Below, piece by piece: positions 26,701-46,747 of a DNA stretch of 64,000 nt. Each line of letters opens with the position of its first letter. Within the stretch, counting starts at the first letter, position 1. The notes beneath the pieces were generated by a model. That model was not told the DNA's origin, ran no database searches, and worked only from the letters and a program-made list of their open reading frames with translations. The DNA is from Aplysia californica (lineage: Eukaryota), in contig NW_004797313.1 of NCBI RefSeq assembly GCF_000002075.1, positions 70,034 to 134,033 on the forward strand. Direction: 5' to 3'. The position numbers and the translations under genes are program-made.

Positions 26701-27495
26701 AAAAATTGTAGAATTCTGTGCCGTGAACAAATGTTCCATTACAACTGTAGCCTACTAAAGGCGTACAATTTTGTCTGTGGGCAGTGGAGAGAGAGAGAGA
26801 GAAAGAGAGAGAGGAGTAGCGCGAGAATTTCCGGGCAAAACAAAATGGCGACCCGCGTAGTTCGGCTCGATTCGAAAAGTTAAATAGCCGTAGCATCTTT
26901 GTAGACAACCAAATTTATTTACTTTTGTGTTTTAACATCATTTTTAAACTTTGTTTTGGTCAATTTGATCATCCACACCGATAGACAGTATTCAGAAAGA
27001 GACAGAGAGAGAGAGAAGAGGGGAGGAGTTGATCTTGCGAGAACTTCCGGGCGGGCCGCGGGTGAGAATAGCCACTTTCTTTCTTGCAGCTCATATTTGG
27101 TTGCATTTTGTCTGTTGTTTGGAACGCCACAAACTGATTAAGCTATTTTTTAAGACCAATTAGATCTAGTTTGGAGTTCGATTCCCAGCCAAAGGAAGTC
27201 AAATAAATGTGCGTTACCGAAATATCGCTATATTATAGAGATACTATCAGAATCAGTGTGTCAGTGTTGTCAGTTGTGCACCAGTCACACTCACTTGACT
27301 CACCTGCGATATTTTTTCTTCTGAAGCTTTTATGCACCCTCGAGGAAGGATTATGTCACCACTCTTAAGATCTCTGGACTTTTTTCTCAAAACTATTCCA
27401 TGGAAAGAAGACTCAGTCCCAATTTTCTGAAGCATTTCGTGAATTTTATGCTTCAAATCTAGAAGCATGTTTTCGACAACATAGTTATCCGCCAT
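8653..27495 (-). CDS. DALRD3: DALR anticodon-binding domain-containing protein 3, complete 14-exon gene (~561 aa)
   Basis: Exons 27495-27304, 24559-24434, 22970-22792, 20291-20005, 19245-19163, 18750-18649, 16808-16720, 16353-16295, 15768-15686, 15244-15124, 14694-14636, 13600-13484, 10960-10892, 8772-8653. All GT-AG, phases consistent, 1686 nt. Motifs GAFIMYNTARLATLF, GIYPPLP...DFTLLREEEEWELLF, SSYYSRYHILG and HLLPLMFARLHL..A..QVL..ALRLIGL resemble vertebrate DALRD3. Confidence 0.92.
9219..10012. mobile_element. Tc1/mariner (pogo/Tigger-like) MITE with TA TSD
   Basis: TA|cagtccgtgccggctttaagca ... tgcttaaagctggcatggactg|TA (20/22 TIR match), with internal repeats of ggctt(t/a)aagcacg. Confidence 0.82.
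10892..10960 (-). CDS. DALRD3: DALRD3 exon 13
   Basis: ISNFLVGFSKRLSSYYSRYHILG, donor GTGAGT. Confidence 0.9.
11518..13166. mobile_element. Putative piggyBac-like non-autonomous element(s)
   Basis: TTAA|CCCCTT at the left end and AAGGG|TTAA at the right; TIR similarity is short, so this may be two elements. Confidence 0.45.
13484..13600 (-). CDS. DALRD3: DALRD3 exon 12
   Basis: EEWELLFLFISRFPETV...VHTHK, 39 codons. Confidence 0.88.
14072..14365 (-). mobile_element. MITE family A, partial copy
   Basis: gtggtgaaatcaggtgcttgtcaaaataatgaaatc ... ttttacctctgaaaccagg, shared with the other copies. Confidence 0.7.
14636..14694 (-). CDS. DALRD3: DALRD3 exon 11
   Basis: GIYPPLPSLKETDFTLLREE. Confidence 0.9.
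15124..15244 (-). CDS. DALRD3: DALRD3 exon 10
   Basis: GAFIMYNTARLATLFEHF, start of the DALR domain. Confidence 0.9.
15686..15768 (-). CDS. DALRD3: DALRD3 exon 9
   Basis: ITQLTQASITFDILQNA (A.I.FE.L-like motif), 83 nt. Confidence 0.84.
16295..16353 (-). CDS. DALRD3: DALRD3 exon 8
   Basis: 59 nt, LRLEQMTEAAEMRYGEAVE, donor GTGAGT. Confidence 0.82.
16720..16808 (-). CDS. DALRD3: DALRD3 exon 7
   Basis: SHLTVGPV... (HL.CGPV-like motif), 89 nt, GT-AG. Confidence 0.82.
17158..18193. mobile_element. TTAA-type non-autonomous DNA element
   Basis: TTAA|ctcactcaaccc ... ggattgagtgag|T-TTAA. Confidence 0.6.
18428..18570 (+). mobile_element. SINE-like or LINE-3'-end repeat family C
   Basis: ggtgctctggtgtggtttg...gcacttatatgacct.attgtgttgcaag.gctgtaaaactc; four copies in the window. 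Confidence 0.7.
18649..18750 (-). CDS. DALRD3: DALRD3 exon 6
   Basis: ELTGCINIVPQSQAFRQQQVHLVWQAL..., resembling the V.CEEEFQQQKLDLLW segment of the vertebrate protein. Confidence 0.85.
19163..19245 (-). CDS. DALRD3: DALRD3 exon 5
   Basis: 83 nt, phase 1 in and 0 out, LLDGVPSSVTESAIKLEECVLHMLADQ. Confidence 0.78.
19337..19505. mobile_element. Short hAT-like MITE (CAGGG...CCCTG)
   Basis: Termini cagggatggaaa / tttctacccctg; flanks tggaat and tagaat; internal ttacggaaaa repeats. Confidence 0.55.
20005..20291 (-). CDS. DALRD3: DALRD3 exon 4
   Basis: Open frame YSVICLND...GFDKNLCKAT; phase 2 in, phase 1 out; GT-AG. Confidence 0.82.
22792..22970 (-). CDS. DALRD3: DALRD3 exon 3 (VQECGSQYG...SLTDMRCSSLHSHVRNLLEAH)
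   Basis: Acceptor CCCAG at 22971-22975, with an alternative in-frame TAG acceptor giving an exon start at 22994; donor AG|GTTTGT. Confidence 0.8.
24434..24559 (-). CDS. DALRD3: DALRD3 exon 2 (FLSLAE...VFLNRASVLQTVLNE)
   Basis: Strong pyrimidine tract + CAG, donor GAG|GTAGAG, 42 codons. Confidence 0.82.
25098..25943. mobile_element. Composite inverted-repeat element in DALRD3 intron 1
   Basis: ~60-bp TIR attagagaa.gacaactaaac...atatttatagtaacagcc..cttgtttgac at ~25224-25285 and inverted at 25883-25943; extra TIR fragments at 25098-25212; 27-bp tandem duplicate at ~25786-25839. Confidence 0.65.
26575..27078. mobile_element. Putative MITE with CTATTCTCACCCG terminal motifs
   Basis: Motif forward at ~26579 and ~26622; inverted (gtgagaatag) at ~26594 and ~27062. 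Confidence 0.45.
27304..27495 (-). CDS. DALRD3: DALRD3 exon 1 (MADNYVVEN...RKKSRDLKSGDIILPRG...ISQ)
   Basis: ATG at 27495 in GTCATGG context; donor CAG|GTGAGT; 64 codons. Confidence 0.85.
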
Positions 27496-27730
27496 GACTG
27501 TTTGTTTACGTCGGAAACGAAAGAGAGTAATTTGCAAAAACTAGAATGTTAAAACTGCGCGGATTAAAATTAAATCACTATTGGAGCTTGATGATATTTG
27601 ATCCGCAGATGTTAAAATGTAGAATCTATGTTTTATATGCATCCGAAAAACATTGATGACGAAGAACGGCTTCCGGTGCTGCGTTGCCTTGTTTCATTTC
27701 AGCGTAAAAATACAAACATCGGGAGAGGAA
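27496..27730. promoter_or_regulatory. Probable DALRD3 promoter, possibly bidirectional
   Basis: Immediately upstream of the DALRD3 ATG, locally CpG-rich, with an ETS-like CTTCCGG at ~27670. The hexosaminidase needs an untranslated first exon somewhere between here and 30682. Confidence 0.4.
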
Positions 27731-28069
27731 TTATTTCTCTTCTAAAAATACTTTCAAGGAATTAACACTTGAACTGAAGCAGGTGAAATTTTAAGTAGTA
27801 GAACTACTCTTCTAACTCTTGTTGCAATTAAGATTATTTTTGGAGACTGTATTAGTGTTGTTGAGCTGAGATAGTGAGATCCTCTCACAAGCCAAAATGA
27901 AACTGGCTGGATGTCAGTCAAAGGCCTAATTTTCAATATTATTGGCTTTGCTTTGCTGTTTTGGATCTGTTTAAGACCGAGAAGACAGTTGAAAAACGGA
28001 GTCCCGGGGGCGGGACAGAATTACAGAATCAAAGTGTGAAGCGTTTCCTGAGGCTTTCATTGTTAAAGG

Positions 28070-28252
28070 AAAGAACTATTCCTCCCAGTGACACTGGGGA
28101 TAGGCCCAGAAACTATTCCCAGTGTCACTGGGAATAGGCCTGGAAACTATTCCCAGTGACAGGCCCCGAAACCACTGAAAATAGGCCCTAGGGCAGAATA
28201 TTGTTCCCAGTGTCACTGGGAATAGGCCAGAAACTATTTCCAGTGACACTGA
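28070..28252. repeat. Tandem array of ~33-bp palindromic units (tattcccagtg.cactgggaata)
   Basis: About five degenerate units of aaactattcccagtgWcactgggaataggcc. Confidence 0.8.
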
Positions 28253-28620
28253 CAACAGACAGGCCCATTAGATCTATCTATGGTAGTGTGTATACAGAGC
28301 CGGTAACCTGGAACAAAATCACAAAGTTTACAGTTTACAGTACAGACCCGGTAGGGGAACTCTTTTGTGATTTCGGAAAGTTTCAGCGCCGTCTTGGCTC
28401 AGGGCAGACCACAGATCTATTCTATGGCCTAGGTCTAGATCTAGACAGACAGACATAAATCATTGATCTGTTTTCGAGGCTAGCCTAGATCTAGATTCTA
28501 GATCTAGATATATATATAGATCTAAATGAAAATTGCGGATGTCTTTTCGATGAACGATCGTTTTTCCTCCGTTTTGGAGTTGGAGGAATCACGATTTGAA
28601 GAAAAGAATAATGTCATAAT

Positions 28621-28879
28621 NNNNNNNNNNNNNNNNNNNNNNNNNNNNNNNNNNNNNNNNNNNNNNNNNNNNNNNNNNNNNNNNNNNNNNNNNNNNNNNN
28701 NNNNNNNNNNNNNNNNNNNNNNNNNNNNNNNNNNNNNNNNNNNNNNNNNNNNNNNNNNNNNNNNNNNNNNNNNNNNNNNNNNNNNNNNNNNNNNNNNNNN
28801 NNNNNNNNNNNNNNNNNNNNNNNNNNNNNNNNNNNNNNNNNNNNNNNNNNNNNNNNNNNNNNNNNNNNNNNNNNNNNNN
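28621..28879. other. Assembly gap
   Basis: N run; others at 45545-45713, 45776-45913 and 62088-62240. Confidence 1.
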
Positions 28880-29671
28880 CTAGCACACATATCACCCTTT
28901 TTTTTAATCCAAGAATTCACAAATTTATTTGAATATCTTTCTTTGAAGGGCCTTTTTATTATGCCAGGCTCCGTGTTGTTTACCCTTAGATCTAGCATAG
29001 CGACAACAAAACAACGATTTTTGCAATGCAGAGTTTCAATCGATATTGGCGCTCAGAGATTGAGGTCAGGCTTGTTTACAAGTTCTACTTCCTTTCGACA
29101 ACTTAAAAAGTAGGAACCTATGTTAAAAAGTGCAGTTTCAATTTCGCTTGGATTTCGTTGAGCCGCTCACAGCGGTAGAACAAAGGCTGCGGAAAAACTT
29201 ACAGCGGCTGAATGGACGGAATCAGTTAATTTCATTTTGTTGTGTCGTAAAGTTTTTCTGTAATTAATTTTTTTTTTAAATCACATCGCACGAAACCAAC
29301 AGCTGTGGCATCTTCCCGACACCTCTTCCCCCAGCAAACGGAGAGTGCATGATCACGATGCGCAGTGTCATTGGTCAACATAATTAACTTTGCCCCCGGC
29401 AAGGTCAACTCAACTTGGTTGTTGTTCTGTTTACTAATGATGCAGGGAGGGCCAGTTTAGATAGATCTAGTAACGGACATTATGCTGGACTCGATTCAGA
29501 GTCGGAATATAATTTTTGTCTCTTCGGACTCGAGTGCAAATAGTCACTTCGATCATCATATTTTCGGCTTTACGATATTCACAGAGGACTTGAGCGCTGT
29601 GTGTTTGTTTTTTTCCTCAACAATGCCTCTTACCGAAGTGGCACTATCACACTATCGCTCAATCCAAAAAT

Positions 29672-29869
29672 GGGAAGACTTCCGTAACGAGCGACCACCC
29701 CAACAAATACAAGAAGAGACCTAGATCTATCCCTAACCTTTCCCTTACCCCTACCCCTATCCTTAGCCCAACCCTTACTCATTCCTCACACCCTAACCCT
29801 ATCCCAATCCCTAACTCTCTATTCTACTCTGATTCATAATAGTGGTCGCTCGTTACGGAATTCCTCTCC
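29672..29869. mobile_element. MITE with ~27-bp TIR, telomere-like (CCCTAA/CCCTAC) core and 6-bp TSD
   Basis: aaaaat|gggaagacttccgtaacgagcgaccac ... gtggtcgctcgttacggaattcctctcc|aaaaat. Confidence 0.8.
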
Positions 29870-29896
29870 AAAAATGATAGTCACGCAGGGACATAT

Positions 29897-30143
29897 TATG
29901 TGAGGCGTGCTAACAAAATGAGTCACTTCTCGCAATCCACAAATGGAGATATTGGCCAAAAATCAACACTGAAGTCAATTTTTTAAATTTTCTATTGATG
30001 CCAGGTTGTTTAAGTGTATAACAAGCCACTTTTTATTTCACACTTATAAATTATATAAAAACTTCACCTAAAAGTGTGATGTATCTATTTCCGTATAGCT
30101 CGAATCCGAGAAGTAACTCATTTTGTCAGCACCCTTCACATAT
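29897..30143. mobile_element. MITE with ~35-bp TIR (TATGTGA ends)
   Basis: Left tatgtgaggcgtgctaacaaaatgagtcacttctcg; right reverse complement tatgtgaagggtgctgacaaaatgagttacttctcg. Confidence 0.75.
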
Positions 30144-30762
30144 GGTAGGATATATCTTAAAACAGTGTGTATAGAATTACAGAGAAAACAATTATAATTT
30201 TATCAGTTAGATCTGGTAGTTTTGAATATTATATTTTTGGCATAAAACCCACTAATTCTGACTTATTTTGGCTAATATTTTGTGTGTGGAAATTTTGTGA
30301 ACCTGGCGACATGGGACAGATGGATGTCATGATCTTAAATTCTTAATTAAAAGTTTTCTATTAGGCCAAAGGATCAGCAGAAAAAGGTAGAGTAGCCTCT
30401 AAAGATATAATATGGACAAGTTCAATTCTTTTAGACTTCTAACTTTCAGAAGTACAAAATTATTATAATTTGTGTGTCTTTAAGTTTTGGAGCAGGCTCA
30501 TAGAGGTGGTTGCTTTTAACAATTTTATCATGTTAACTTAATTATATTTCTGTGTTTTTCTTCTTTTTTTTTTTTATTGTTTGTGAAAACGTTCTTTTTC
30601 AGACTTGATTTAAAATACATTATTTTATTGAGTGAAAACATTTAAAATTATCATACGTTACTCATTATTTTATGTCTGCAGGTGTCCCAAGATTTCCCAA
30701 CGCCGTTCGAGGACATATTTGTGGTCTCAGTATAGAACGGCACATGAGCAGCTGATAGAAAC

Positions 30763-30846
30763 ATGACTGATTCACCTCCTGGCAGTGTCCCTATCTCCCA
30801 AAAGGAGTTAGATGTGCTCGCCTCCACTCTAGGACTGAAATATCAG
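30763..30846 (+). CDS. Chitobiase-type hexosaminidase coding exon 1 (exon begins as 5' UTR at 30682)
   Basis: Acceptor TCTGCAG at 30675-30681; in-frame TGA at 30745; ATG 30763; MTDSPPGSVPISQKELDVLASTLGLKYQ; donor CAG|GTTCAG. Confidence 0.8.
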
Positions 30847-33800
30847 GTTCAGTTTTCTTTGATGAAATAGCAGTTTTGATACATGAGAATGTTTAGTTTT
30901 CTTAGGTTTTTAATTACTTTTATGGAGAACTCTTTTTGGGAAGGACTTCCGTAACGAGTGACCACCCCAACAACCCCAAACCCAAACCTAAACCCTACCC
31001 CTACCCCTATCCCCTACACCTCTGTCTCATAGGTCGAGTGGTCGCTCGTTACGGAAGTCCTCCCCTTTTTTGTATGTAGCATTTGTAGAGATTTTTAAAA
31101 AATTTTGACACATATCGAACGAAAATTTCTTTCCTGATCCTTACTATTGTCATTTTCCTCTACTTCTTTTGTATGTTTGTCACTCTCTTGTGACCTGCTA
31201 TTTTGGGGTGCCTTGATAGTCGAAGCAGACTTTGTGCTGTTGAAGCTAGAGAGGTGAGCTGTCTAAGTCTGATTCCCTATAAAGACTTCTCTGTTGACAC
31301 CCACCCCTTGGCGCTCATATGACCTTATGCAGTTGCGAGTGCCGTAAAACCCTCTACTATTAAAAAAATGTAAAAATAAAAAACGTTTCATTCACACTCT
31401 TTTTTTGCTGCTTCCTCATGAACATTGTTCCCTCAAATACATTTTAAAAATCAACCCACTTTGGGTAGTATTATCCTATTACTCTAATGTTTGAAAACCA
31501 AAAAATTAATAACTCTTTTGTCAATGCATTTTTTAAAAACTTTCAAATAAAAAACATTTTACTCAAGGTACAAGACTCTTTCATTTAAGCTTGTTTTAAA
31601 GCAATTTCAAACGGGGTTTTTTATGCATTCTTCTTAATTATTTCTGTAAAATGTAAATTTATTGAATAGTTTGAAATTTTATGGTGAACATTTGTGAGGT
31701 CAGAATAGCTGAAGACATTTGAATTTTTATTGACTTTTTTTTTGTACAGGTGGAGGACAATTTAAGTGGTGGCAGAGCTCTGTTCAGTGCATCGATCACA
31801 CTGACAAATAGATGTGATATCCCTCTCAAATACTACACAGAGAGCACAAGTTGGAGAATCTTCTTTTGCCACTTACGTATGGTGGAACCAACCTACCTTC
31901 CTCTTGATGACAGTGTAGATCTTCAGTATGCAGGTGTGCGCTTTGCTCACCTTAATGGTTCTATCTTCTCTCTCAGTCCCTTAAAAAACTTCAAGACTCT
32001 GGAAAAAGGAGATTCGGTGCTTATCAAGTTTAATGGCCAACACTATTCTGCTTCTCGGACTGATATACTTCCAAACTGGTACATTCAAGTAGATGGACTT
32101 GAGCCTCGTATAATCAAAAGTACAGAGGGTGAGTCCTTGGACTTTGTGGGAGACTTTGACTCACCCAAGAAATACAAACGTTTTGACTATGTTTTGGCTT
32201 CTGGAAAGCGACGTTACGATACGTACCAGCCATTCTCCCCAGAGGTGAGATTTCTCAGGTACTTGTCTCCCAAGGAAGATGATGACTCTCTACAGCAAGT
32301 GGTCCCAACACCAGCGAGCTTTCAGAAAAAAAGTGACAAGTCGATTGATATCTATTCAGGTGGATGGAAGATCATGCTTTGTGAAGATGCAGACTTCCTG
32401 AATGAGGCCCAGTTTTTGTCTGGTATGTTTTTAAAATAATTTTCAAATTCATATAGCGATTCTTTCTTGGAATTTTTCTGAGAACTTTTCTGAAGGTGTT
32501 GGTGTCTTGTTTCTTGACTTTTCTCTTCAAACTCAGTAAACATGTTCAGGGCCAGGTGGGCTCCTTCAGTGCTAATGTTCATAATTTCTAAATTAGAGGA
32601 TTTTCTCACAATTTCAGTTTCATAACTCTTTGACATGTGTGTAGTAGAAAGCTTTTAAGAGGTCAAAGGAACTTTTAATTTAAAAAAAAAAAAAATTTTT
32701 GTTCTTTTACTTGCAGCTGTATGGTCGAATGACTTGTTGTTGTTGTTGTTACTGATCCAGTAGCATCTGAGCGTTAGCTCTTCTGCATGGCCATTCGGTA
32801 ATAGTTGCATGTTTGTTCTAATTGTTGTCTTGAGGAGTAGAGGCAATTAGATGTGTGAGGTAGCTTGGGAAGAAAACATCCCCTTAAATCAGTTAGTTTT
32901 CTACAGAAGAACAGATGATGTTCCACTGTCTCTGAGGAGTAGTCACATAGTGGGCAGGCAGCAGACTGCTTTACTCCAATTCGGTTGAGATGTTGGTTGA
33001 GGGGTACATGTTGTGTTCTAAGTTGGAAGATTATAGATTGATCTCCCCTCCTCAACTCATTGATTGGATCTTTGACCAGTGGTTTATTCATGTGGCCATA
33101 CATCCTCCTTCCTGTCGTACCTGTGGCCCAATCATTCATCCACTCTTCCTTGAGGTTTGACTTGATCATTTGGCAACAGGTAGTGTAATTCGTAGGAATT
33201 TCAGGCTGAGGGAGGCTAGCTCCTTTCTTTGCCAGAGCATCAGCTCTTTCATTTCCCGGTATCCCAGTGTGGGCAGGAATCCATTGTAGGACTACTCTAA
33301 CGTGGTGCCTACTTATCAAATTATGTAGACTGTCAAATGACTTAAAGTGTGATTTGACATGCTTTTTTTAAAATCTTCTCTTTATTGTTCCAGTGCATCT
33401 TTCTATGTAACAGGTACTGCCTTGTGAAAGACTTCCTTTTTCTGAAAATTTAATTTCTCACCCTAGGACTGATCATTATAGCAAAGCATCTCCATTTTCA
33501 TACCTACTCGTTGCACACACTGACTCACAAAACTACTAAGATTTATCCCTTTTGTTGCCAATCAGGAGTGTAACTAGTGATTTTCCTTGTTTCTGTAAAT
33601 CAGAAAGGATCAACATTCCTCTGTCAGAGGAGCGACGGGCTCTGTGTGAGGGTGAAGCTTGTCCATCGAAAGTCATAGCGATCAGGAGGTCTGAGGTCAA
33701 AACAGCTCTTGCAAACAGCTCTCTTGTTTCTGAGTCATATGAGATCTCGGTTGATGCTGCAGGGGAATTTGTCCTGGTAAGACAAGGGTTTGAGCTTTGT

Positions 33801-36800
33801 GATTTATAAGGTATTTTTGTGAAGTAATAAGGTATATACTTTAATAACATATAAAAATTATGAGTTCAATCATCAGCTGCATAGGATAGGATATTCTTTT
33901 CCTAGATATTATACTTTACCCTGTTCTCCTCTGTTCATGAAATTGCAAATGAATACTTGGCAATCTGTTGAATAAGAATATAATGTAAATGAGAGCATAT
34001 GACCCAACAGGCTGCAGTTCTGTTTATCCCCAGGAAGAAGATTGGAATAGTAAATTAAATTTCTCAAGCTAGCCAAGGGAGTTTTTATGAAGCTGTAGAT
34101 ATATGTTCGTTTGTGTGTGAAAAAGCTTTTTCGTGTTTGAATGTATTATTTTTGTAGTATGGCTCTCTGTCTTACTTTTTAAAGTCCTTACTGATAACAC
34201 TATAATGCCCCTTTTATCAGATCTCGGCAAAAGAAGCAGCAGGAGCTTTCTACGGTATTCAGAGTCTTCTTAGTTTGTCATCTGCTTCTTCCAAGAGAAA
34301 ATCCGGCCAAATACCAGAGTGCCTCATCTGTGATACCCCACGATTCCCTTACAGAGGCATGCATGTGGACATTTCCAGAAACTTTCAGTCCAAAAGTGAA
34401 ATATTTCGTGTCCTGGAAGTGATGTCGATGTATAAGCTCAACAAATTCCATTTCCACCTGACAGATGACGAGGGTTGGCGGTTGGAGATACCAGGTCTTG
34501 AGGAACTGGTTGAGGTATCTGCTTGTTGGTTTGTTTCTATCTGATATTGGTACAAAGGTCATAAGTAAAACAATATTGTCTACGTTGTTTTGATTACAAC
34601 AATGCTGCTTTGCTTATTTAAATAATTTTATTGCAGTTTGATTTTCGGGAAACATTTTTCCCATGTGGGTTTGGGAGTAACAAACAGCCCCATTGTTTAC
34701 TTGGTGGAAAGGCCAGCCTACTAGTGGTGGAGCAGCCGCCATGAAGATCAATGCTGCAATATAGAATTTAGGGTTGGGTTTTTTTATGTAACACTGTCCT
34801 TTCTTCCTCCATGCCTCAAATTGTTGTGCCATATGTTCTTCTTTTGAATAACCTTATTGTGTCTAGTAGTGTGTTGTACTTGTTCCTAAAGAAGCAGATC
34901 TTAAGTGCCTTTAAGACTTCTGCAGAATTTATGAGACCTGGCTGCGACAGGTATGGGGCATTAATGTCATGAGTGATAAATAAATCCCCCCCAAAAAGAT
35001 TTCTCCTTTTTATATATATAAAAATATTCTTCTATATGTGTCTCATTGCGGTGAATCAGGGGCTCATCAATTTTTGGGCATATGGAATTACTGTTTTTAT
35101 TTTAACTCTTCATGTCCGTAAGGGATTTTTGTTCTGACCGAAGCCTCCCAGGGACTGATCCTATACAGCAGTTGGGTGGGTTACAAAAGTCTATATAACT
35201 TTCAATCTACTAGGCCCACATCAAAACTTTTGGTATGTCTGTGTTCAGAAATGAAAGTTGCATTTATTGGTGTTCATTTAGATGCCTTCTTTGAAGAATA
35301 ATAATAGACTATTGAAGTAAATGGCCATTAGCAAAAAAAATGTTGCAATGTTACATAACACTGTTCACTCAAATAGGGGTGTAACTTTATAAAACTTGAA
35401 CACAGAGCCAAAGTAAAAGAAGCAAAAATGTTGATATACATTCTAGGATTACATCTATGGTGGCTGTAGCTTCTTTGAAGCCCATTCTTTTGAAATACAC
35501 CAAAATAATAAAATGTATCAGAACCCACATTCGGCATGAAAAGTGTAAACACAGCTAGATCTAGATCTACTTTTCTACACACTTTGTTATACAATAAATC
35601 AAAGGCTTACATTTATAGTTTTGTTTGAATATACCTAGATATGAAAACTGTGTCTTTATGCACGTTTTCCAAGTAATTTTGAGTAATTATTTGAAGTTTC
35701 CAGGTGTAAGATGAGGTGTACAATAACCACATATAAAAAAATCACATGCACAAAGACATAAGCCTACACATTACGATGAACTAACCTGAATAGAGCCTCA
35801 ACAAGATCCAACATCTAGATCTAGATTTATAATATCCAAATGGAATGAAAACTTTGTCTCAGTATAATCCAAACAAGAAAACTGTCACTACAATTTTTTC
35901 AGGAGCAATCTCCAGCCATTATAATCTCCCTAACCAACACAAACAAATTATACACAAAAAATCAGCTGTTTGGAAACAAGCCATCAAATCTAGCAAACGG
36001 GCCCGCACAAACGCTACAAAATGAAAGTACAAACAGAAACAGACCTATTTTTGGCATTTGCGACCATAATTTCGGTTGATGTAGTGAAATATTAGTTTCA
36101 CGTGTATTTAATGAAGGCTAGTGTAGCGAGCCGGTATCAGCGGCCAAACCCACTTCGCGCCGAGCCGCTGCCACCGGCTCACCGGACATGAAGAGTTAAA
36201 GCGTGTACATTTTTCTATCTTTCGATGAAAAGAATGTCCATCTATCTTGAATAGAAGTCAAGATATTTGCTATTAAGAAGGTGGGGTCACCTGATTTCAA
36301 AATTAGCTAGAAAATGGCCACCAAAGTTAGGTTACTTCCAAAGCTTGAGAGTTCTTTGAGACTGAAAATTCAAATTTTTTTGGGTTTGCCTTCAATCAAC
36401 GTTTTTCAGTAAAATTCACACAGAAATGTATTTTTAGATGGATATAACAGGTTTTGAACCCCCCAAAAAAAAAAATTTGATAAAAATTGCCAAACCCTCG
36501 GGAAAGTGCTGGTATCTTTGATTTCATTATTTTGACAAGCACCTGATTTCACCACAACGCGTCATATATTTTTATAATGCCTACAATTAATTGACATAAT
36601 GTATTATGCCAAGCTGCCTTATTAGGTACATTTATCGAGGCTGAAATCAAGCCTTGTTCAATCTTTTTTTTTTTTTTACGGCGCTCGCAACTGCATAGGT
36701 CATATGAGCACGCGGGACACACCTAATATTTTCAATTGGTAGGAAATTTTGAATTTTGCCCGGGTGGCGGTTGAAGCCTACTCTTATCGATTTTAGACCA

Positions 36801-39800
36801 CCAAGGGATCTTTAAGGTGCGCAACTTGCACAAGGGCCCTCCATTCGATCTGTTAGTTTCTTCTCATGTGTTTTTGTTCGACTGGATTATAACTCTGTAA
36901 AGGTTATTGCTTTAGATATTTTGCTCTTCAGGGACTTTACTCATTTTTAGTCAGTAAAACATTAAAAATGTTATCTTTCAGATGGGTTCCAAACGAGGTC
37001 ATGACCCAGACGAGAGAGAGTGCTTGCTTCCCCTGCTAGGCAGCGGACCCAGTGCTAGTGGCCTGGGGTGTGGATATTACACAGTGGAGGAGTACCGTGA
37101 GATTCTGCGCTTTGCCAAAGCACGTCACATTGAGGTCATTCCTGAGATTGACATGCCTGGGCACAGCCATGCTGCAGTCAGGGCCATGAAAGTTCGCTAT
37201 GATCGACTGATGGCAAAGGTAGTTTCTTCTTATACTTTTTTTTGTGTAATTCTTTTTAGTTGTTCCATAATCTTTTGATTTTTTTTTGGTCTCTTTATGT
37301 CACTAAAGATGCACATAGTCCATTCTACTTGTAGAATAGTTTCACATCTTCTTGAACGCACGTTAGAATGAGGACATAAACAAACCTCCATAAGGGGAAA
37401 ATATTTTGACTAAAGGAAACTACCAGACAGGTTTTTTAAAGTAGCTTTTATGGCAATGATTGCAGTTCTATCTTAATTTCGGAATGTCAATATAAGTACC
37501 TGTACAAATGAGCACCTCCCACTCCTCGCAAATTTTTACATTATAATGATATTGCCCAAGACGAACACATGTCTACGACAACTACAGTAGAACTTGTCTA
37601 AGACAGAATCGTTAGGGAGTCAGAAAAAAAACAGGGGGAGGAGGGGGGGGGGGTTTAGAGGCCCAGCCAGTGGGATCAAGAGTCGCCTGCCCGGTCGGAA
37701 AGCATTAGTCAAATTTTAACCCCTCTCAAGAGCTATCCTAGTCTCTCTGATAATGGCATGCGTCAGTCCAACTTGTCTAGTGCCACCAGTACGTGCATCT
37801 CATTGGACCATTGTTTGACTTATTAAAAACAGAAAGGATTGTACATGTCCTTTGTTCCCACCCTTAGCCCCACCCATCGGTGTAATAAGCACAGTCAACC
37901 AATGCCACCCTTCCCGCACGTGTAACAACGATTCGAGGAACTTTTTTCCTGGCTATCTCCACAATCAGGGTGGCAGGCATTTATCAAATTAATTTCACAC
38001 CTCTGGCTACCCAGGAAAGTTTTAAGGCCACTCCTTAAAATTTTCCTGGGTAGCCAGAGGTAGCTTCGGCCAAGACTCTCTTCGACAATTTCAACTGCAT
38101 TTAAAAAGGAATTGGTTAGGGCTTTTGCTTTTTCATAATGAATGGTCCAGGAATGTTGGACTGGCTTGAATGAGTGTCTCAGCTGAAGCTACTGCTCTTT
38201 GGTATAAAACAGATGTGGACCAATGGCATAGGGACCACCTCTGTCTGTTCAAGCTGATTACTGTTTTATCAGTGTGCACTGGCCAGCCTGACTTCCACAC
38301 CCGACTAGTTGAGACAGTGAACTATTAAAAAATTCTTTTGCCTTGTTTCAGGATGAGAAGGCGGAGGCTGAAAAGTACTTACTCTGTGACCCAGGGGATG
38401 GCACTCCCAAGGCTTACTCAGTGCAGATGATAGCGGAGAACGCGATGAACCCTGCCCTCGAGTCGACCTACGCCTTCGTTGAAAAGGTTTGTCAGTGTAC
38501 TGAGAATTTTTTAGCCTTTTTTCTCAAATTTTCAAGCCCCCCACGCCTTTGAAGTAGTATGACTTTAGTTGCAGAATGCTACAATCACTCCTGCATGAAG
38601 TGCAATGTGTTGAGAGTGTTGTGGGATAAAAAATTCAGTTTTAAAAACGTGCACTTTGCTGTAGGTTTTCTCAGAGGCACATACATATAATGGCTCAGGG
38701 CTGAGGGCCAAAAGCTAAAAATGTGCAAGACTAGTGACAACAATAACAGTGCCTAAGGTTGGTTGGCAATACCCCCCCCCCCCCCCCCCCAATTGTTCCC
38801 TTTTCTTTCTCAGTTCCCTGTATTTTCTAGAACAATTCACAAGACTCTAACAGTAGATCCTACTCTTTTCTTATTCATCTGCCTTTCCCATCTTTTAACT
38901 TACTTTTTGCGTTCGCTTTTTGGTGGAAAGTGCGTCAGTGTAAATCTGTGTGAAGCAAGTCGGTTCATAGTCTCCGCGATGTTTGTCTTGAGTGTTGTTT
39001 TTGTCCCACAGTGCTCCTAAGGAGTGAAAACTATTCCCTCAGGTTATTGTGGAGTTGAAAAAGATGCACGAAGACATCCAGCCCCTCACGGTTTTTCATC
39101 TGGGTGGGGACGAGGTTCCTTACGAAGCCTGGGATGTCTCGCTGTCATGTGTGGCCCTGGTCGAGTCAGGAAAGGTGGAGGACATGGATGGTTTGATGGA
39201 GTATTTTGTGCTGCGGGTCGCTGAATTGGTACACAAGCATGGGTTAGAGCTCGGGGCGTGGCAGGATGGCATAGTGAGTACCATTTTTTTTTAAAATTAT
39301 TGTATGCAGTTATCAGGAATGCCATCGTCAGTGTGTGTGATTTTGGCCTAAGTCTGATTAAGGTCATGGGTAGTGGTGGGTGCTCTGATGTGGTTTGCTC
39401 TGCCTTTCCTATCACAAATCTATCGGCCTTTTCTCTCCTCTATGGGTGGTTGGCGGGTGCTCTTGTGTGGTTTGCACCTTCTTTCCTATCAAACACCTAT
39501 CATCCTTATCTCTCCTCCTTTTTTGTGCTCGTTACTCTCTTGTAACATATCTATTCTTCGGCACTTATATGACCTTATTGTGTTGCAAGTGCTGTAAAAC
39601 TCTTACTAAAACTAAACTTATCTCTTTTCCTTCTTTTCTTGGTATGTTACTCTCAAGTAACACCTAATCTTCAGCACTTCCATGACTTATTGAGTTGCAA
39701 ATACTGTAAAACTCTAGCTAACATGTTGACAATGGGGTTTTTCACTGTAAGCTGCTACATAACTCCTGTTATTGACACTCAATACTAGCAACTTGAAAGC

Positions 39801-42800
39801 AAAAACAAAGCAGTTTGTCCCTTTTTTATGTCTTATTGTCACGAAGTACAGATTTTTGGGGGTTTTTTTTATTTCTTGTTTAAGGCAACAAAGTACTTCT
39901 ATCTATCATATCCTCTAATAGGTTATAACTTCTATGGAAAATATATCCTGATACTTGTAAAAGGATAGTCCCTTGATTATTTCTTGTCACAGGTAATAAA
40001 AAGAATCCCCCTGATGTTTCCTTGTTGCAGGTAATGAAAAACAAAGGGCCCTACAACCGCAAAAAGTTCCCGAACCGAAGAGTGCTGGTTCACTTTTGGA
40101 GGAATGCCTGGGAGACTGGACAAGCCTTCGATGCCTTCAAGTTGGCCAATGATGATTATGAGGTAGATAGGCAGGCTTTGCTAGAAGAGGGGTGTGCATA
40201 TTTCTTAATTGGGTCAAAAGTTCATTTTTCTTGTTTTCTTTCAGGTGTTGTGCTTTGTTTATACGGTCACACCTGCTCTAATAGCCATCTGTCTAAGACA
40301 ATCACCTGCACAAATGACCACTTCCCACTTCTCCCTTTGGGTTTTTTCTTATTCTTTATTATAATGACACTGTCCTGGATGTCCTCCTATCTGAGACAAC
40401 CACTTTTGTCCTCGACAATGGGTGGACGTATTGGACAATTTCAACTGTATTTGAGTTATGGATGACTGGAGGGCACTTAGATGTGACTGCTCCTACATTT
40501 TTTCTATATTGCTTTTAGATTAATCTCTACCTTTTCTGAACTTAATAACCAGTGCAATGGTTAGAGGATGCCCTCGTAGGTTCTTCTTCCAGGCAGTACT
40601 TTTGTTGCTTCAATCTATCTTACATGTCTGTGCATGACCATTACTGTATTGACATGCTATACATCAACTCAATAAGAAGCAGAGGCTAAATGACTGTTGT
40701 CTTGTTGATGAGTTTAATCAATCTAAAATTGCCCTCAAATGGAGTGACCGCGACAAGCTTCTCTTTTATTTAAAGACTTATTCTGACTAAATAACCTTTA
40801 TGGTACCGTCGAACCTGCTCTAATGGCCACTTGTCTGTACTACCGACCACTTCCCACTTCCACTTGCACTTAAAAAAGAATAATTAAAACAACACTGTTT
40901 GAGACATTCACCTGTCTAAGTCAAACTCTTTTCCCCTTGACAATTGGTGGCTGTCTTGGACAATTTCAACTGTTTTGACGTTCCACTTATTAACTTGAAA
41001 ACATGTGGAGACTTAATGATCTTTATTTTTTAGGTGTTTTGTTTTCTTTTTAAAAAACCTCAAACTTAAGGACTGTTATCATGTCGACAAGCTTCTCTTT
41101 AACTGAAAAGCTAAACCTGATAAAGTTACCTTTATTATTTTGATGTCCTTCTTTTTATCTCAAAATCTGACCCATCCTTAAGACGGATCTGCCATTGGCT
41201 GACAAAACGCCTTTTTTTTATTCACAGTGTAGTAGTTTCAAGAAAAAGGGCATTTTCTCTGAGTAACCATTAAAGAAAAGGCGTTCTTCCGAAATTTGAA
41301 TTCTAATTTATTCAAAAACTAGTCTCAATTTCACTTTGATTTTTTCACACAATTGGGGTAACTGGTCAGGCTGTTGATTTAACAAAAATTTTGCTCCAAA
41401 AATGAAAGAAGGCGTTGGCAGCTGGCAGCAGTGATGTGATGTTATCAATTGTCAGTGTGCTTCTGTATAACTCAAAAATAATCTTGATTATTTTCATCAT
41501 GTTGATGTGGCCCTCTTTTCATTCATCAAACGAGTAGAACAAAAAATTGTTTTGGTGTCTGTCTCTTAGGTGATCCTGTCCCCGGGCACTCACCTGTACT
41601 TTGACCACCCTTATGAGCCGGACCCTGAAGAGAGAGGGCTGTTCTGGGCCTGCAGGTGGGTTAACCATTATGGGTTGTTTTGGGTTTTTTTCTTCCTTCT
41701 GTGGCCAGTCAGATGTTCTCATTTACAATATCACTTTTTTAGTTTTCTTGTATTTTTTAATAACTGAACCTACATCAAAGTGTTATATGTGTCAAGACGC
41801 GGTGGAATCAGGCACTCGTCAATTTTTGGGCATATAGAACTATTAATACAATCTTAAAACTTGTTTACTTCTCCTGCATTTGGCGAAAAAAATACCCCTC
41901 TATCTTGAATTGAAGTCAAGATATTTGCGATTGAAGGTGGTGGGGTCGCCTGGTATGAGAGGTAAAACTAGCGAGAAAAGTTTGGTACCCTCCCTCCAAA
42001 GCTTGAGAGTCCTTTGGAACTGGAAATTTACTTTTTTCGTACCTTTAATGAACATTTTTCAGTGACATTTGCTGAGAAATGTGTTTTTAAAAGGACATAT
42101 GAGGTGTAGAGCCAAAAATAGAAAATATTTTTTTTAATTACCCAAAATCCAGAAATATGCCATTTTCTTTGATTTCATTGTTTTGACGAGCACCTGATTT
42201 CACCACGTAGCCTCACATATGAAAAACATACGCTTAAAAAAAAAATTATATTCACTTTTTCAGACATGCATTTTCTTCAGAACACTTATTTGAAAAAAAA
42301 CAACAACAAAAGACCTCAATGAGTGTGAATGCACATAAATGTTTTAATCTTTAAGCAGCTTTCAATGGAACCTGATACCTGGGTCTCAAGAACTAACATG
42401 TCATGAAATCTTCAGGCTTGTTTGTTGCAGGTGGAGTGTTTCTAGTACAAGGATGATAAAGTACTCTAAGTTGACAGTTTTAAAGACTTAAAAAGGAAAT
42501 TCTATTTGGCTTATAGTCTATAGTTCTGTTTTTACTCCAAAATGGGTATTTGTTGCCCCTCCACAGTGAACAATTTCTAAAATATTGCAGAATCAGTTTT
42601 CTTTTTACTGCCTTTTATCACATGGGTGGATATAGAGGTCAGATCTATTGATTTTTCATGTGCAAGAATGTCTTTTCTTTAGAATGACCACACAAATCCC
42701 TTTATTTCTTACATGGATATTGTCCTATATATATACATACAGGTTTGTGGACACACGCAAGGTCTTCAGCTTTGCCCCTGACAATCTCATGTCTAATGCT

Positions 42801-45800
42801 GACGTGAAATTGACTGGTGAAAAGATGACCAAAAATGACCGCAAGATGCTGCAGTTGGAATATTTCACAACACTGAAAAAGCCACAGAACATCAAAGGTA
42901 ATAGGAGGACTGCGAGGATGACATTAGGAAAGGAACTTTCATTCTTAGCCGTTAGGACAAGGGAGCTGCAATGAACAAGTTGCTATTGAGCTCAAGCTCC
43001 TAAATAGTGTCAGTGTTGGTGACAAAGTATAAATAAATAAATAAATAAATTGCATTTATATAGCGTATTTGCACAAAGAAGTGCTCTATGCGCTGTACAA
43101 TAATGCAAAGAACATATGCAGCACACAGCTTCTATAGTAATCCTCTTTCTCTCTCTCACTCTGTCTCTGTCTCTCTCTCTCTCTCTTCAGTACATCCTTG
43201 AGTAAAGACAATCCCACAAAACTTACCCATACACCCTTGCACTCATTGATTTATTCACACAGTCATAAATTCTTACAGAACAGCATGAATAAACGATACT
43301 GAGAGAACATAATAGATACTGAGAGAACATAATAAGCATTTAACTTTCAAGTGGATGTGTCCTTGTGAAGGCTTCAGTAACCCTAACCAAAAATACAGAG
43401 CACTTCACTGTCGTCTGCATTGCGATATTATGTTTATCATGACATTGCTATACGTACTAAAAATTTTTGTATGCGTGCAGATCAATAAACTGGTATTATA
43501 TCTATCTTCATTTATTTTTATAAGAAGTTAAAGGATGTGATTAGCTAGCTGCTTCTTCCCAGCTATCTGTCCTTGCCCCCCCCCCCCCCCCTCCTACTTT
43601 GCTTTCAAGTATGCTCTGTTTGGCACTGGATTATGGACAGGCTTGAAGTACTTGAGCTAGAGTCCAATCTGACTGATCGTGAATAGTTCTCCTTCGTCAA
43701 AATGTGTGCTTGTTTTGGGTTGTTGTTTTTGGTAAGTGTTTTATGGCTCTCGCAACTGCGGAGGGTCATATGAGCACACAGGATGTATGCATTTTCTTCA
43801 GGTGGAGTAAAGAAGCCTATGATTAGTGGGAAGAAAGCCAATGATTTTGACTTTTTATTTGTTTAGCTGCCTGATAAGGTCACAGTAAGGGGAAACAGTC
43901 CCCATGTTCATGTTGCCTGGGCCTCTCACCAAGAAAAGTAAATTGATTATTAAGAGTAAATCGTCAAATATAATCATGTCACTCCTCATGCTCGGATCTC
44001 TTTATTTTTTTCTGCAGGTCTTCAAGGACAGATCTGGACCGAACTTGTCCGTACACCATCTCAGTTCCACGAAATGATCTTTCCCCGGCTTATCGCGCTG
44101 GCAGAGCGGGCATGGCATCGGTGTGACTGGGAGGACCAGGATTACGAGAAGAGGACGGGTGACGTGGAGGCGGATTGGTCCCGTTTTGCCCACTCCTTAG
44201 GACACAAGGAACTGTACCGACTGGAGAGTTCACAAGTGCCTTATCACATCCCTCCGCCAGGAGCCAGGTATGGGATGTGCGCTTAGTAAGGGGGGAACTT
44301 TATCTTTACAAAAGATTTATATTTATTTCCTTCTGTCTTTTTCACAATGTCCTTACAGCTAGACCTCAGTCTTTTCAGTCCTACATGGACTCTCATCTTG
44401 GTCTCTTCTGAGCTTATTCTTTTGTCCATCATCCCCGGGTGTTAATTACGAGTTGCTTGCTTTTTCTAATAATGTAAAAGCACAAAAGCAATGCACTAAT
44501 ATTCGCTCTGCTGTTCTTGACTGTTATGCCCTCTTCAAAATGCAGACATTTGGAGAGCACCACTTGTAGGTCCTACTTCTTTTTTGTTTATCTATCTGCC
44601 TTGGGTTTTTTTCCCAAACACTAAATTATGATTAAAGTGGCTGTAATTGTGTAAGTATGCTTCTCTCTTGACCAGGAAAAGGTTTTTCCATCTGCCGTAT
44701 ATCATAGCATATAGTACACCTTTTTTAACCTAAAATTCAGAGTTTCAAAGTCACCCTGTGTCTTATCCAGGAGATACAAATTAGACCCAAACGGCCCAGT
44801 GGAAGCCAACTAAAAGGATAGACTCTATGGATCAGGTAAAAATCAATTAAATAAAATCTGGACATTACCACTTTGAAAAAAAATGTGTGCTTCATGCCTC
44901 AAAATAGGCTGCTAGCAAAAAAGAGGTAAGTGCAACAAAAAAAAATGGGGTTTGTTTTGTTTAAAAGTATGGTTTGTTGATAATAATAGAAGTCCACTAA
45001 CAAAAGTGATGGTGCTTGCCATAAAAAAGTTGGTATCAGATGTACGTAGGATTTACATGCACTTTTACCATTCCTGTACAGCCACAGAAAATTTCCAACA
45101 GGGACAATACAGTGTTATCTTATCTCATCTCACCTTATCTGATCATATCTCCTATCTTATTTTATCTTAGCTTTTGAATCCCCGCTTATCTTATCTTTAT
45201 ACCAGACTTTTGGCTCTCTAGTCTACCTGTGTCTTATCTGTGTATGCATCCTACACGCAATGATATACAGTATCTTCCTTCTTTTCTCTTGCTTTTGTTC
45301 ATCTAATGTATTATTATTATGATAAATGCCTCCAGAATCACCGGTGATGGTCAGTTGGAGCTGCGGAGCTGCTATCCGGGTCAGCCTCTGTCTTACTCAC
45401 TGGACAATGGTCAAACATGGCAGGAGTACAGCACACCTACTGATGTAGCCGCTTGTGAGGAGGTGCTAGCCAGAGTGAGGTGAGTAAGCCCACAAGAATG
45501 TATACACTCACAAATACATGCTCACATGTGCACGCATACTCACANNNNNNNNNNNNNNNNNNNNNNNNNNNNNNNNNNNNNNNNNNNNNNNNNNNNNNNN
45601 NNNNNNNNNNNNNNNNNNNNNNNNNNNNNNNNNNNNNNNNNNNNNNNNNNNNNNNNNNNNNNNNNNNNNNNNNNNNNNNNNNNNNNNNNNNNNNNNNNNN
45701 NNNNNNNNNNNNNGTAGAATGCTTGCAAACGAATTTACAAAACTCATTTATTCATATATGCGACTCCTTTTCACANNNNNNNNNNNNNNNNNNNNNNNNN

Positions 45801-46073: not shown

Positions 46074-46141
<68 letters not shown>

Positions 46142-46272
46142 CTCTCTCACACACACACCCTCACATTTATTTATAAATTAATTTTTTCAGTTCTCACAAT
46201 GGCCGATCCCACAGTCGCTGTGTCAAAGTGTCTGTCAAGTCTTACACCGATAGTGATGAGCAGGAGAGTTGA
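30763..46272 (+). CDS. GH20 beta-N-acetylhexosaminidase, chitobiase-type (CHB_HEX + GH20b + GH20 catalytic + CHB_HEX_C), 13 coding exons, ~891 aa
   Basis: Exons 30763-30846, 31750-32422, 33604-33776, 34221-34514, 36982-37218, 38352-38486, 39043-39273, 40031-40162, 41570-41655, 42743-42897, 44018-44267, 45336-45479, 46191-46272. All GT-AG, phases consistent, 2676 nt. Motifs DTPRFPYRGMHVDISRNF, KLNKFHFHLTDDEGWRLEIPGL, IPEIDMPGH, HLGGDE, AWQDG, LYFDHPYEPDPEERG, GQIWTE, IFPRLIALAERAW, YSLDNGQTW. Confidence 0.93.
30938..31064. mobile_element. Second copy of the telomere-like-core MITE
   Basis: cttttt|gggaaggacttccgtaacgagtgaccac ... gtggtcgctcgttacggaagtcctccc|cttttt. Confidence 0.8.
31128..31370 (+). 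mobile_element. SINE-like repeat family B, second copy
   Basis: Collinear with 3357-3603. Confidence 0.75.
31750..32422 (+). CDS. Hexosaminidase coding exon 2 (CHB_HEX carbohydrate-binding domain and linker)
   Basis: ITLTN...WRIFFCHLR...HLNGSIFSLSP...TDILPNWY...VVPTP. Confidence 0.9.
32736..33331 (-). mobile_element. 5'-truncated non-LTR retrotransposon (I/Ingi/Nimb-like; RNase H C-terminus + zinc-knuckle region)
   Basis: ORF 32774-33319: LQWIPAHTGIPGNERADALAK, QLRTQH..LN.HL, CPLC...ETVEHHLFFC. (AAC)n tail. 12-bp TSD gtc(g/a)aatgactt at 32724-32735 and 33332-33343. Confidence 0.9.
33604..33776 (+). CDS. Hexosaminidase coding exon 3 (GH20b domain)
   Basis: ...SESYEISVD..., donor GTAAGA, phase 1 in and 0 out. 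Confidence 0.87.
34221..34514 (+). CDS. Hexosaminidase coding exon 4
   Basis: GAFYGIQSL...PRFPYRG...HLTDDEGWRLEI. Confidence 0.93.
35034..36569 (+). mobile_element. MITE family A copy, split by a TTAA insertion
   Basis: 35034-35105 plus 36200-36569 reconstitute a copy collinear with 41785-42220. Confidence 0.78.
35106..36195. mobile_element. Non-autonomous piggyBac-like element (TTAA TSD, perfect 13-bp TIR)
   Basis: TTAA|ctcttcatgtccg ... cggacatgaagag|TTAA. Confidence 0.85.
36664..36840 (-). mobile_element. SINE fragment with Nin/Deu-like core and poly(A) tail
   Basis: Minus strand gttgcgcaccttaaagatcccttgg...taagagtagg, then gctcatatgacctatgcagttgcgagcgccgt + A-run; same tail as family B. 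Confidence 0.55.
36982..37218 (+). CDS. Hexosaminidase coding exon 5
   Basis: GYYTVEEYREIL...HIEVIPEIDMPGH. Confidence 0.93.
37999..38061. repeat. 63-nt near-perfect hairpin (29-bp stem, 5-nt loop)
   Basis: acctctggctacccaggaaagttttaagg-ccact-ccttaaaattttcctgggtagccagaggt; a single G:T pair. Confidence 0.9.
38352..38486 (+). CDS. Hexosaminidase coding exon 6
   Basis: YLLCDPGD...SVQ...MNPALESTYAFVEK. Confidence 0.9.
39043..39273 (+). CDS. Hexosaminidase coding exon 7 (catalytic Asp-Glu pair)
   Basis: FHLGGDEV...GAWQDG, donor GTGAGT. Confidence 0.93.
39372..39720 (+). mobile_element. Repeat family C with internal partial duplications
   Basis: Head motif repeated at ~39378 and ~39455; tail motif at ~39560 and ~39670. 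Confidence 0.7.
40031..40162 (+). CDS. Hexosaminidase coding exon 8
   Basis: VHFWRNAWETG...LANDDYE. Confidence 0.9.
41570..41655 (+). CDS. Hexosaminidase coding exon 9
   Basis: VILSPGTHLYFDHPYEPDPEERGLFWAC. Confidence 0.92.
41785..42220 (+). mobile_element. MITE family A, full copy
   Basis: Same TIRs and body as 276-713. Confidence 0.8.
42743..42897 (+). CDS. Hexosaminidase coding exon 10
   Basis: FVDTRKVFSFAPDNLMSNA...KPQNIK. Confidence 0.9.
44018..44267 (+). CDS. Hexosaminidase coding exon 11
   Basis: GLQGQIWTELVRT...MIFPRLIALAERAWH...YHIPPPGA. Confidence 0.92.
45336..45479 (+). CDS. Hexosaminidase coding exon 12 (CHB_HEX_C domain)
   Basis: GQLELRSCYPGQPLSYSLDNGQTWQEY, donor GTGAGT. 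Confidence 0.88.
46080..46158. repeat. (CA)n/(CT)n microsatellite
   Basis: Read directly from the sequence. Confidence 0.95.
46191..46272 (+). CDS. Hexosaminidase terminal coding exon
   Basis: SHNGRSHSRCVKV...QES*; resembles the S.DG.R.SR...V end of chitobiases. Confidence 0.78.
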
Positions 46273-46747
46273 GTGAGACCTCGATTTACGGCTTCTACCT
46301 GGATTTGGACAGCGCGAACACTCAGGACTATTTGAATGTTTTCTTCTTCTGTATACAATGTTATGACGTTTTGGAAAAAAGACGAGTATAAATGTTCGCT
46401 AAAATGAAATCCCCATTTTTATATATTCTGAGGGTTTTCGTCTTTTGTTGGGTTAGTGCGAGCCTACAGTTATTTCAAATTTGTATTGTAAAAAAGATTT
46501 TGAGATAATATACCTGAAAGTGTCTTAATTTTAATTTTTTATTTCCTGATTTATTCCATTGTAAACTAATTTTAGGTTTGATAACTTATTGCAAACTGAG
46601 GAACTTATTCCAGAACATTTCTTACTGTCGCACTTGTTAAAGTTTCAGGGTTTTCTAGTGAGAATCACAAATTTCCCCTCTGCTTTCTGACTAGCAGCAT
46701 GAGAAGCTATGATATCTCATATTTTTTTCAACCCACTGTCTATGACT

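Follow-up and report, generated by a model that had tools for sequence, protein, structure and literature searches.

The 64,000 nucleotides of Aplysia californica DNA considered here (contig NW_004797313.1, positions 70,034 to 134,033; hereafter the window, to whose own numbering all coordinates refer) contain, on the forward strand, a gene for a four-domain chitobiase of the Serratia type, a member of glycoside hydrolase family 20 (GH20) with an intact active site. Its 13 coding exons (30763-46273; Table 1), separated by introns that all have GT..AG borders, specify a protein of 891 amino acids (aa) identical to XP_005092291.1 (P0001 in our comparisons), which carries the database name beta-hexosaminidase. 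A first-pass annotation had let the gene run from 30682 to 39273, an extent that takes in only seven of the coding exons: the motifs LYFD (41594), FWACR (41642) and IWTE (44032) and the stop codon (TGA, 46271-46273) all lie beyond it. The six active-site motifs that it listed (DISR, HLGGDE, AWQDG, LYFD, FWACR and IWTE) are all present. Seven of the exons occur in order on a single contig from run X4, with no foreign letters, and the coordinate gaps suit the remaining exons; the lengths of transcript contigs point to a 3' untranslated region (UTR) of about 545 nt.

Four Pfam domains score above cut-off, in the order found in Serratia chitobiase (CHB_HEX, PF03173; GH20b, PF02838; GH20, PF00728; CHB_HEX_C, PF03174), the barrel domain PF00728 with 301 bits against a curated cut-off of 22.3; a Pfam search gave no match to PF07555 (GH84) in the protein. 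By sequence, the best solved relatives are PDB 9JOQ (E 2e-182) and Serratia chitobiase (1QBA; 6e-143), human HexA and HexB standing at about 1e-20, which upholds the earlier view of a lineage separate from HEXA/HEXB. An AlphaFold model (mean local confidence score, pLDDT, 81; predicted template-modelling score, pTM, 0.87) has the same two structures as its closest PDB folds (TM scores 0.84 for 9JOQ and 0.81 for 1QBA). The H-x-G-G-D-E motif, with its adjacent Asp-Glu pair D555-E556, is present, and when the residues in Table 3 of PMC8098473 were placed by hand on the alignment to 1QBA, nine of the ten -1 subsite positions (R363, D555, E556, W605, W632, Y663, D665, W740 and E742) proved identical to the Serratia list. 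The tenth is H666 instead of Serratia F672, and His is also found there in all 24 of the bacteria-like homologs described below. The Trp of the +1 subsite (Serratia W685) corresponds to W679, and the S-V-Q segment and CHB_HEX domain of chitobiase are retained. In domain order, fold, catalytic pair and subsite residues, the protein thus resembles both 9JOQ and the Serratia marcescens enzyme (SmChb, 1QBA/1QBB), for whose D539/E540 the substrate-assisted GH20 mechanism is established (PMC8098473, PMC1885261). Judged by these residues, the Aplysia protein is very probably an active enzyme; D555 would orient the acetamido group, E556 would serve as acid/base, and W679 would stack the +1 sugar as in Serratia chitobiase.

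Serratia chitobiase is an exported bacterial enzyme with disulfide-bonded cysteine pairs. The product of the intron-rich Aplysia gene differs from it in having no signal and in having its Cys pairs broken. The start at ATG 30763, which the first-pass annotation had fixed by an in-frame TGA (30745-30747), is confirmed, with a second in-frame stop (TAG 30733-30735) in the same exon. On contigs from three of the four runs checked over 25200-31100, a non-coding first exon ending at 27782 is spliced GT..AG to 30682 (these runs, X4, X6 and X8, form one study and their RNA nature is guessed, though the GT..AG joins show splicing; the contigs of the fourth, X13, do not reach the gene start). No ATG occurs between 27663 and the donor at 27782. 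With a non-coding first exon and two in-frame stops before the ATG, the observed transcript is therefore unable to encode a signal peptide. Ahead of the first conserved helix stand 12 residues that lack a hydrophobic core (best nine-residue hydropathy 0.12), as had been read from the sequence at first pass. Could a signal exon be hidden in the run of Ns at 28621-28879 (259 bases, in intron 1), as was also suggested? The splice jumps over this stretch, and the first exon lies upstream of it. When 27522-31749 was scanned for exons that run from an ATG to a donor in phase with 31750, two candidates emerged, neither convincing as a signal exon, and in a form that skips exon 2 there is no in-frame ATG upstream.

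Table 1. Exons of the chitobiase gene, and the first exon of its divergent neighbour, in window coordinates
Feature	Coordinates	Strand	Remarks
Non-coding first exon	27663..27782	+	Start at 27663 or further upstream; contigs of X4, X6 and X8
5' UTR part of exon 2	30682..30762	+	TAG 30733, TGA 30745; three-codon upstream open reading frame 30744-30755
Coding exon 1	30763..30846	+	aa 1-28: no signal peptide; first conserved helix preceded by 12 polar residues
Coding exon 2	31750..32422	+	CHB_HEX domain (PF03173), start of GH20b
Coding exon 3	33604..33776	+	GH20b domain
Coding exon 4	34221..34514	+	GH20b ends and catalytic barrel begins (D360, R363, D393)
Coding exon 5	36982..37218	+	RGHD; G414 (36997-36999) in place of first Cys of pair 1
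Coding exon 6	38352..38486	+	NPA; A522 (38454-38456) in place of first Cys of pair 2
Coding exon 7	39043..39273	+	Catalytic pair D555-E556 (39109-39114), W605
Coding exon 8	40031..40162	+	W632
Coding exon 9	41570..41655	+	Y663, D665, +1 subsite W679
Coding exon 10	42743..42897	+	Segment of third Cys pair of animal paralogs; no Cys here
Coding exon 11	44018..44267	+	W740, E742, end of barrel
Coding exon 12	45336..45479	+	CHB_HEX_C domain (PF03174)
Last exon, coding part	46191..46273	+	Acidic C-terminus, no hydrophobic tail; stop 46271-46273
First exon of divergent neighbour gene	27304..27522	-	X6 contig ends at 27522; loose end of X4 contig matches exon ending at 24559

With P0001 and a profile of 31 sequences as queries, homolog searches left 146 proteins, of which 110, and later 132, of 700-1000 aa were analysed. 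Short fragments were kept out of the trees, as were the fused long models P0011-P0016, P0098, P0100, P0102 and P0123, which have NPC in every module seen. In a FastTree analysis of 110 proteins, the 42 with both Serratia-type Cys pairs broken form one clade (support 1.0), and 67 of the 68 others keep both. IQ-TREE, given 61 selected rows from which the Cys and sequon columns and the termini had been removed, placed the 19 clade rows together (Shimodaira–Hasegawa-like approximate likelihood ratio test, SH-aLRT, 99) and, rooted on eight bacteria-like rows, nested the clade inside the animal group (SH-aLRT 99). Each of the 33 clade members that bear a name is a mollusc; gastropods, bivalves and cephalopods are represented, and the chiton Liolophura forms the first branch. 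No member outside the molluscs appears among the named matches listed (the best 120 of 4082 and of 4587 matches, and the best 150 of 20889 representatives), and homologs named as coming from annelids, brachiopods, cnidarians, echinoderms and tunicates keep NPC. The orthologs, from four classes and from shell-less as well as shelled molluscs, show 46-66% identity, and animal paralogs are about 39-43% identical to the Aplysia protein. At least two signal-anchored paralogs (P0072 and P0129) are encoded in the Aplysia genome. Three cephalopod-like secreted paralogs (P0075, P0086 and P0099) have a Cys-rich N-terminal extension, for which in P0086 the chitin-binding domain PF01607 is listed.

Traits were compared across 132 proteins: 42 from the clade, 66 from other animals and 24 bacteria-like (only part of the last are named, the rest being placed by the tree). 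The clade rows are related by descent, so that the counts repeat one event many times over and are not independent samples. A signal or anchor, called by a hydropathy heuristic rather than by SignalP, was found in one of 39 N-complete clade proteins, against 47/55 from other animals and 23/24 bacteria-like; the single clade case is a gene model extended ahead of an internal MMDQ start. Most bivalve and cephalopod members begin two residues ahead of the first helix, and a hydrophobic N-terminus is absent from all 28 further isoforms and near-copies of at least 600 aa. A hydrophobic C-tail, frequent in other animals (34/66), occurs in no clade or bacteria-like protein.

The cysteines tell a similar story. 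According to Tews et al. in 1996, those of Serratia chitobiase are reportedly disulfide-bonded; our alignments show positions only. The pair 414/422 is intact in none of the 42 clade members, 63/66 other animal proteins and all 24 bacteria-like ones, and the pair 522/568 in none (one a gap), 65/66 and 24/24; three caenogastropods keep C414 and have lost its partner. A third, animal-specific pair (at least two Cys in segment 700-731) is present in 65 of the 66 other animal proteins and in neither remaining group. The Aplysia protein has G414, A522 and no Cys in 700-731, and the phmmer alignment to 1QBA sets its RGHD (exon 5) and NPA (exon 6) against the RCHD and NPC of Serratia, just as the first-pass annotation had reported. 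Its further argument from a missing N-terminal Cys loop was dropped as non-discriminating, there being no two Cys in residues 28-45 in any of the 66 animal paralogs or 24 bacteria-like proteins, nor a loop in any of the 132 aligned proteins in the matching segment (placed there by assumption, Serratia not being in that alignment). Outside the canonical pairs, the median number of Cys is 10 in the clade (6-17), one in other animals (0-7) and zero in the bacteria-like group.

N-glycosylation sequons at positions 564 and 593 are found in 30 and 38 of the 66 other animal proteins, in no clade member and in no bacteria-like protein (which have Asn there in zero and one case). At the conserved Asn 32 and Asn 48 the picture is reversed, with sequons in 23 and 15 of the 42 clade members, in one and one of the 66 and in six and 21 of the 24. 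We infer that the clade was released from avoiding glycosylation at structural Asn residues, sequons at 32 and 48 being tolerated because the clade would never meet the glycosylation machinery of the endoplasmic reticulum. The 42 members have no type 1 peroxisomal targeting signal (PTS1), KDEL, CaaX or Met-Gly start, and no support was found for the nuclear location that had been proposed alongside a cytosolic one. By this comparison, one mollusc clade lost the predicted signal or anchor along with its C-tail, all three of the Cys pairs and the conserved N-glycan sites at 564 and 593. It was asked at first pass whether loss of signal and loss of Cys coincide in a single clade, and they fall on the same branch. 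The clade, nested among secreted, membrane-anchored and glycosylphosphatidylinositol (GPI)-type animal chitobiases (including those of bivalve shell matrix), belongs to the same animal subfamily, and is set apart from these paralogs by features that they mostly keep. The Aplysia gene and its mollusc clade are a real variant of the known GH20 chitobiase family, well supported by alignments and trees.

Where, then, would such a protein work? We consider it highly probable, on the combined pattern of losses, that it lies outside the secretory pathway, and probable, with somewhat less assurance, that it works in the cytosol. A secreted or membrane-anchored animal chitobiase gene would have been duplicated in the mollusc ancestor, and one duplicate would have lost its signal-coding sequence; once its product was in the reducing cytosol, disulfides and glycan sites would no longer have been under selection and free cysteines would have accumulated. 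In Littorina (P0018/P0052), Lottia (P0030/P0048) and Pomacea (P0046/P0054/P0090), the signal-less gene and a secreted-type paralog are likely to share a chromosome or scaffold, as their carrier contigs are equal in size, an arrangement that could go back to the original duplication.

Several observations weigh against parts of this account. For the sequons at 32 and 48, a gain of glycan sites is an alternative reading. The pair C68/C99 is complete in 24 of the 42 clade members against 31 of the 66 paralogs (it is broken in the Aplysia protein and 12 other members, with 13 half pairs in the clade and five in the paralogs). The clade has a lower overall density of sequons (p 2e-6); after correction for composition the difference disappears (p 0.85), and this measure was dropped as evidence. 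Contigs with the first exon all come from one study, and contigs lose rare isoforms. In the raw poly-A runs X21-X23 the exon bins are close to zero, the last exon and 3' UTR lying outside the exons counted; this near-absence is compatible with restricted expression or 3'-biased libraries. The model has low confidence near the active site (661-684 and 505-515), and the substrate is deduced from a bacterial structure at 32% identity. Lastly, 136 stretches were scored among distant representatives, and 17 of the 23 without both Cys pairs have a hydrophobic N-terminus, although at least one of the 17 (P0283) is doubtful; by eye the group resembles bacterial lipoproteins. Apparently secreted homologs lacking the same cysteines, which the first-pass annotation had held to be fatal to its reading, exist among distant bacterial-looking proteins and not among animal paralogs. 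They show that the disulfides are dispensable for the fold, which supports activity and means that Cys loss is no proof of location; as a stand-alone argument it was rejected. Disulfides are likewise reported not to be conserved across GH20 (PMC2492878). P0180, P0248, P0264 and P0283 are bacterial-looking chitobiase types seemingly without signal peptide and Cys pairs, possibly convergent cytoplasmic forms. P0167 and P0192 (about 1200 aa) have a degenerate GH20 domain without the catalytic Asp-Glu after an apparent kinase-type N-terminus and may be pseudo-enzyme fusions.

Of the roles that can be proposed, the one we favour, with reasonable though limited confidence drawn from sequence comparison, is that of a soluble cytosolic exo-beta-N-acetylglucosaminidase, most likely splitting chitobiose and short oligomers of N-acetylglucosamine (GlcNAc). 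The choice of substrate follows from the retained +1 Trp (42/42 clade members) and accessory domains, together with the short pocket of Serratia chitobiase, suited to sugar dimers (PMC8098473). Oligomers might reach the cytosol by uptake after extracellular chitin digestion, or be released by chitin synthases, and would be cut to GlcNAc for salvage into uridine diphosphate-GlcNAc (UDP-GlcNAc) or glycolysis; elsewhere in the Aplysia genome there are chitin-synthase-family matches on seven contigs, a GH85 locus and, on another contig, a separate GH84 locus. By analogy with the bacterial enzyme, chito-oligomers have about an even chance of being the main substrate. The same evidence on location would serve equally for an active cytosolic enzyme acting mainly on GlcNAc-terminated free N-glycans or O-GlcNAc proteins. 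The GH85 (ENGase-family) locus makes a cytosolic free-glycan pathway likely, the clade has residues of its own around the active site (P558-Y559-E560, Q606, Q/R/K633 and L677), and it is kept alike in molluscs with and without shells. Yet the GH84 O-GlcNAcase-family locus suggests that O-GlcNAc removal is already served, and the chitobiase features just mentioned, with the S-V-Q segment, are kept; we regard such substrates as rather unlikely to be the main ones, with free-glycan trimming still a serious competitor and O-GlcNAc the least likely of the three put forward at first pass (chito-oligomers, free N-glycans and O-GlcNAc).

A protein without a signal might instead be released non-classically (by digestive-cell shedding, in mucus or in vesicles) and work outside the cell. 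Chitobiases of the same domain architecture do occur in bivalve shell matrix (PMC7747718), and the signal-bearing homologs without these disulfides indicate that the fold works outside cells; against this, some ten scattered extra cysteines suit a reducing compartment, and P0072 and P0129 are left for outside work. PMC7747718 treats mollusc four-domain chitobiases, and its tree includes Lottia 236342 and Octopus XP_014790058, both of which belong to the signal-less clade, as plain chitobiases, neither of them bearing a shell-matrix mark in its supplementary table 3 (a weak point, as no Lottia chitobiase is marked); the part of its text available to us has no remark on their missing signal, though the domain figure might show it. 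Such release seems to us improbable. Still less probable is an unseen isoform with a signal-peptide exon, by which part or most of the protein would be secreted or lysosomal: the 5' end comes from one study's contigs, in which rare variants are dropped, and the N stretch is unreadable, but behind the acceptor at 30682 come two stops in frame, neither scanned candidate convinces, and a signal is absent from 38 of 39 N-complete orthologs in four classes and from all 28 further isoforms and near-copies. That the gene is a decaying or non-catalytic copy (a sugar-binding protein or relic) is barely credible, since, although extra cysteines, lost pairs and the poorly modelled segments could mean relaxed selection, the catalytic and -1 subsite residues are invariant across the clade wherever aligned (41-42 of 42) and orthologs persist in four mollusc classes.

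The chitobiase gene lies head to head with a multi-exon gene on the minus strand (about 13300-27498; exons 27304-27522, 24428-24559, 22756-22973, 20006-20293 and others further down). This neighbour may resemble DALRD3; Pfam, Atlas and PDB searches with pieces of its exons gave no match. About 140 bp separate the end of its contig (27522) from the start of the chitobiase transcript (at or before 27663), and the head-to-head promoter zone (27304-27782) is CpG-rich (observed/expected about 1.0) and contains CTTCCGG, an ETS-like motif, at 27670. Downstream, a convergent gene (57630-62683, minus strand) has phytanoyl-CoA dioxygenase exons (PhyH, PF05721). Within introns, a fragment of a retroelement without long terminal repeats (non-LTR; 32774-33364, minus strand) matches RNase H and zf-RVT, and abundant interspersed repeats, at 31104-31659, 36664-36842, 39444-39999 and 41668-42223, draw poly-A reads by the thousand (95-99% identity), which implies heavy transcription of these repeats from other places in the genome. 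Two copies of a short element (29680-29860 and 30946-31062), in which a tandem core similar to CCCTAA/CCCTAC is flanked by matching inverted ends, resemble miniature inverted-repeat transposable elements (MITEs) or short interspersed elements (SINEs).

Compared with the known hexosaminidases of animals, the Aplysia protein is like hexosaminidase D (HexD, HEXDC) in being a GH20 enzyme outside the secretory pathway (as predicted here), and unlike it in being nested, in a tree without a HexD sequence, within the animal chitobiase-type subfamily with CHB_HEX domains. HexD is not known to have CHB_HEX domains, and we take it to belong to eukaryote clade B of GH20. The likely cytosolic location of the Aplysia protein would be of an origin independent of HexD. 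Clade B sequences have been reported in Lottia (PMC2492878). With lysosomal HexA and HexB it shares the GH20 barrel and catalytic pair, but structural identity is 17-19%, and those enzymes, made in the secretory pathway, have no CHB_HEX domains. O-GlcNAcase (GH84) is cytosolic and uses substrate-assisted catalysis. The Aplysia protein, predicted to be a cytosolic beta-N-acetylglucosaminidase, would be like it in both respects and belongs to a different family.

The open-access literature, to which the search was confined, yielded no account of a mollusc chitobiase without a signal; annotation pipelines and shell-matrix studies lump this form with the secreted chitobiases. The clade offers a clean natural case of re-compartmentalisation, in which the signal, the anchor, all three Cys pairs and the glycan sites disappeared along a single branch. 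An enzyme free of disulfides should be straightforward to express and assay. The latency of N-acetyl-beta-hexosaminidase is used as a biomarker of lysosomal stability in mussels (PMC3094310); were it active at the acid pH of these assays, a cytosolic isoenzyme might raise their background. More speculatively, a secreted chitobiase relocated before the mollusc classes split may serve an intracellular chitin-sugar cycle, clearing chito-oligomers that come from chitin synthases or the gut and setting the supply of GlcNAc and UDP-GlcNAc for the chitin of shell, radula and beak, and possibly also trimming free glycans or O-GlcNAc. The non-lysosomal hexosaminidases described in mammals are HexD, which is nucleocytoplasmic, and O-GlcNAcase (PMC4339880); if our interpretation is right, molluscs would possess a third, independently evolved animal hexosaminidase outside the secretory pathway, and its presence would imply a hitherto undescribed cytosolic pool of GlcNAc oligomers in chitin-making animals.

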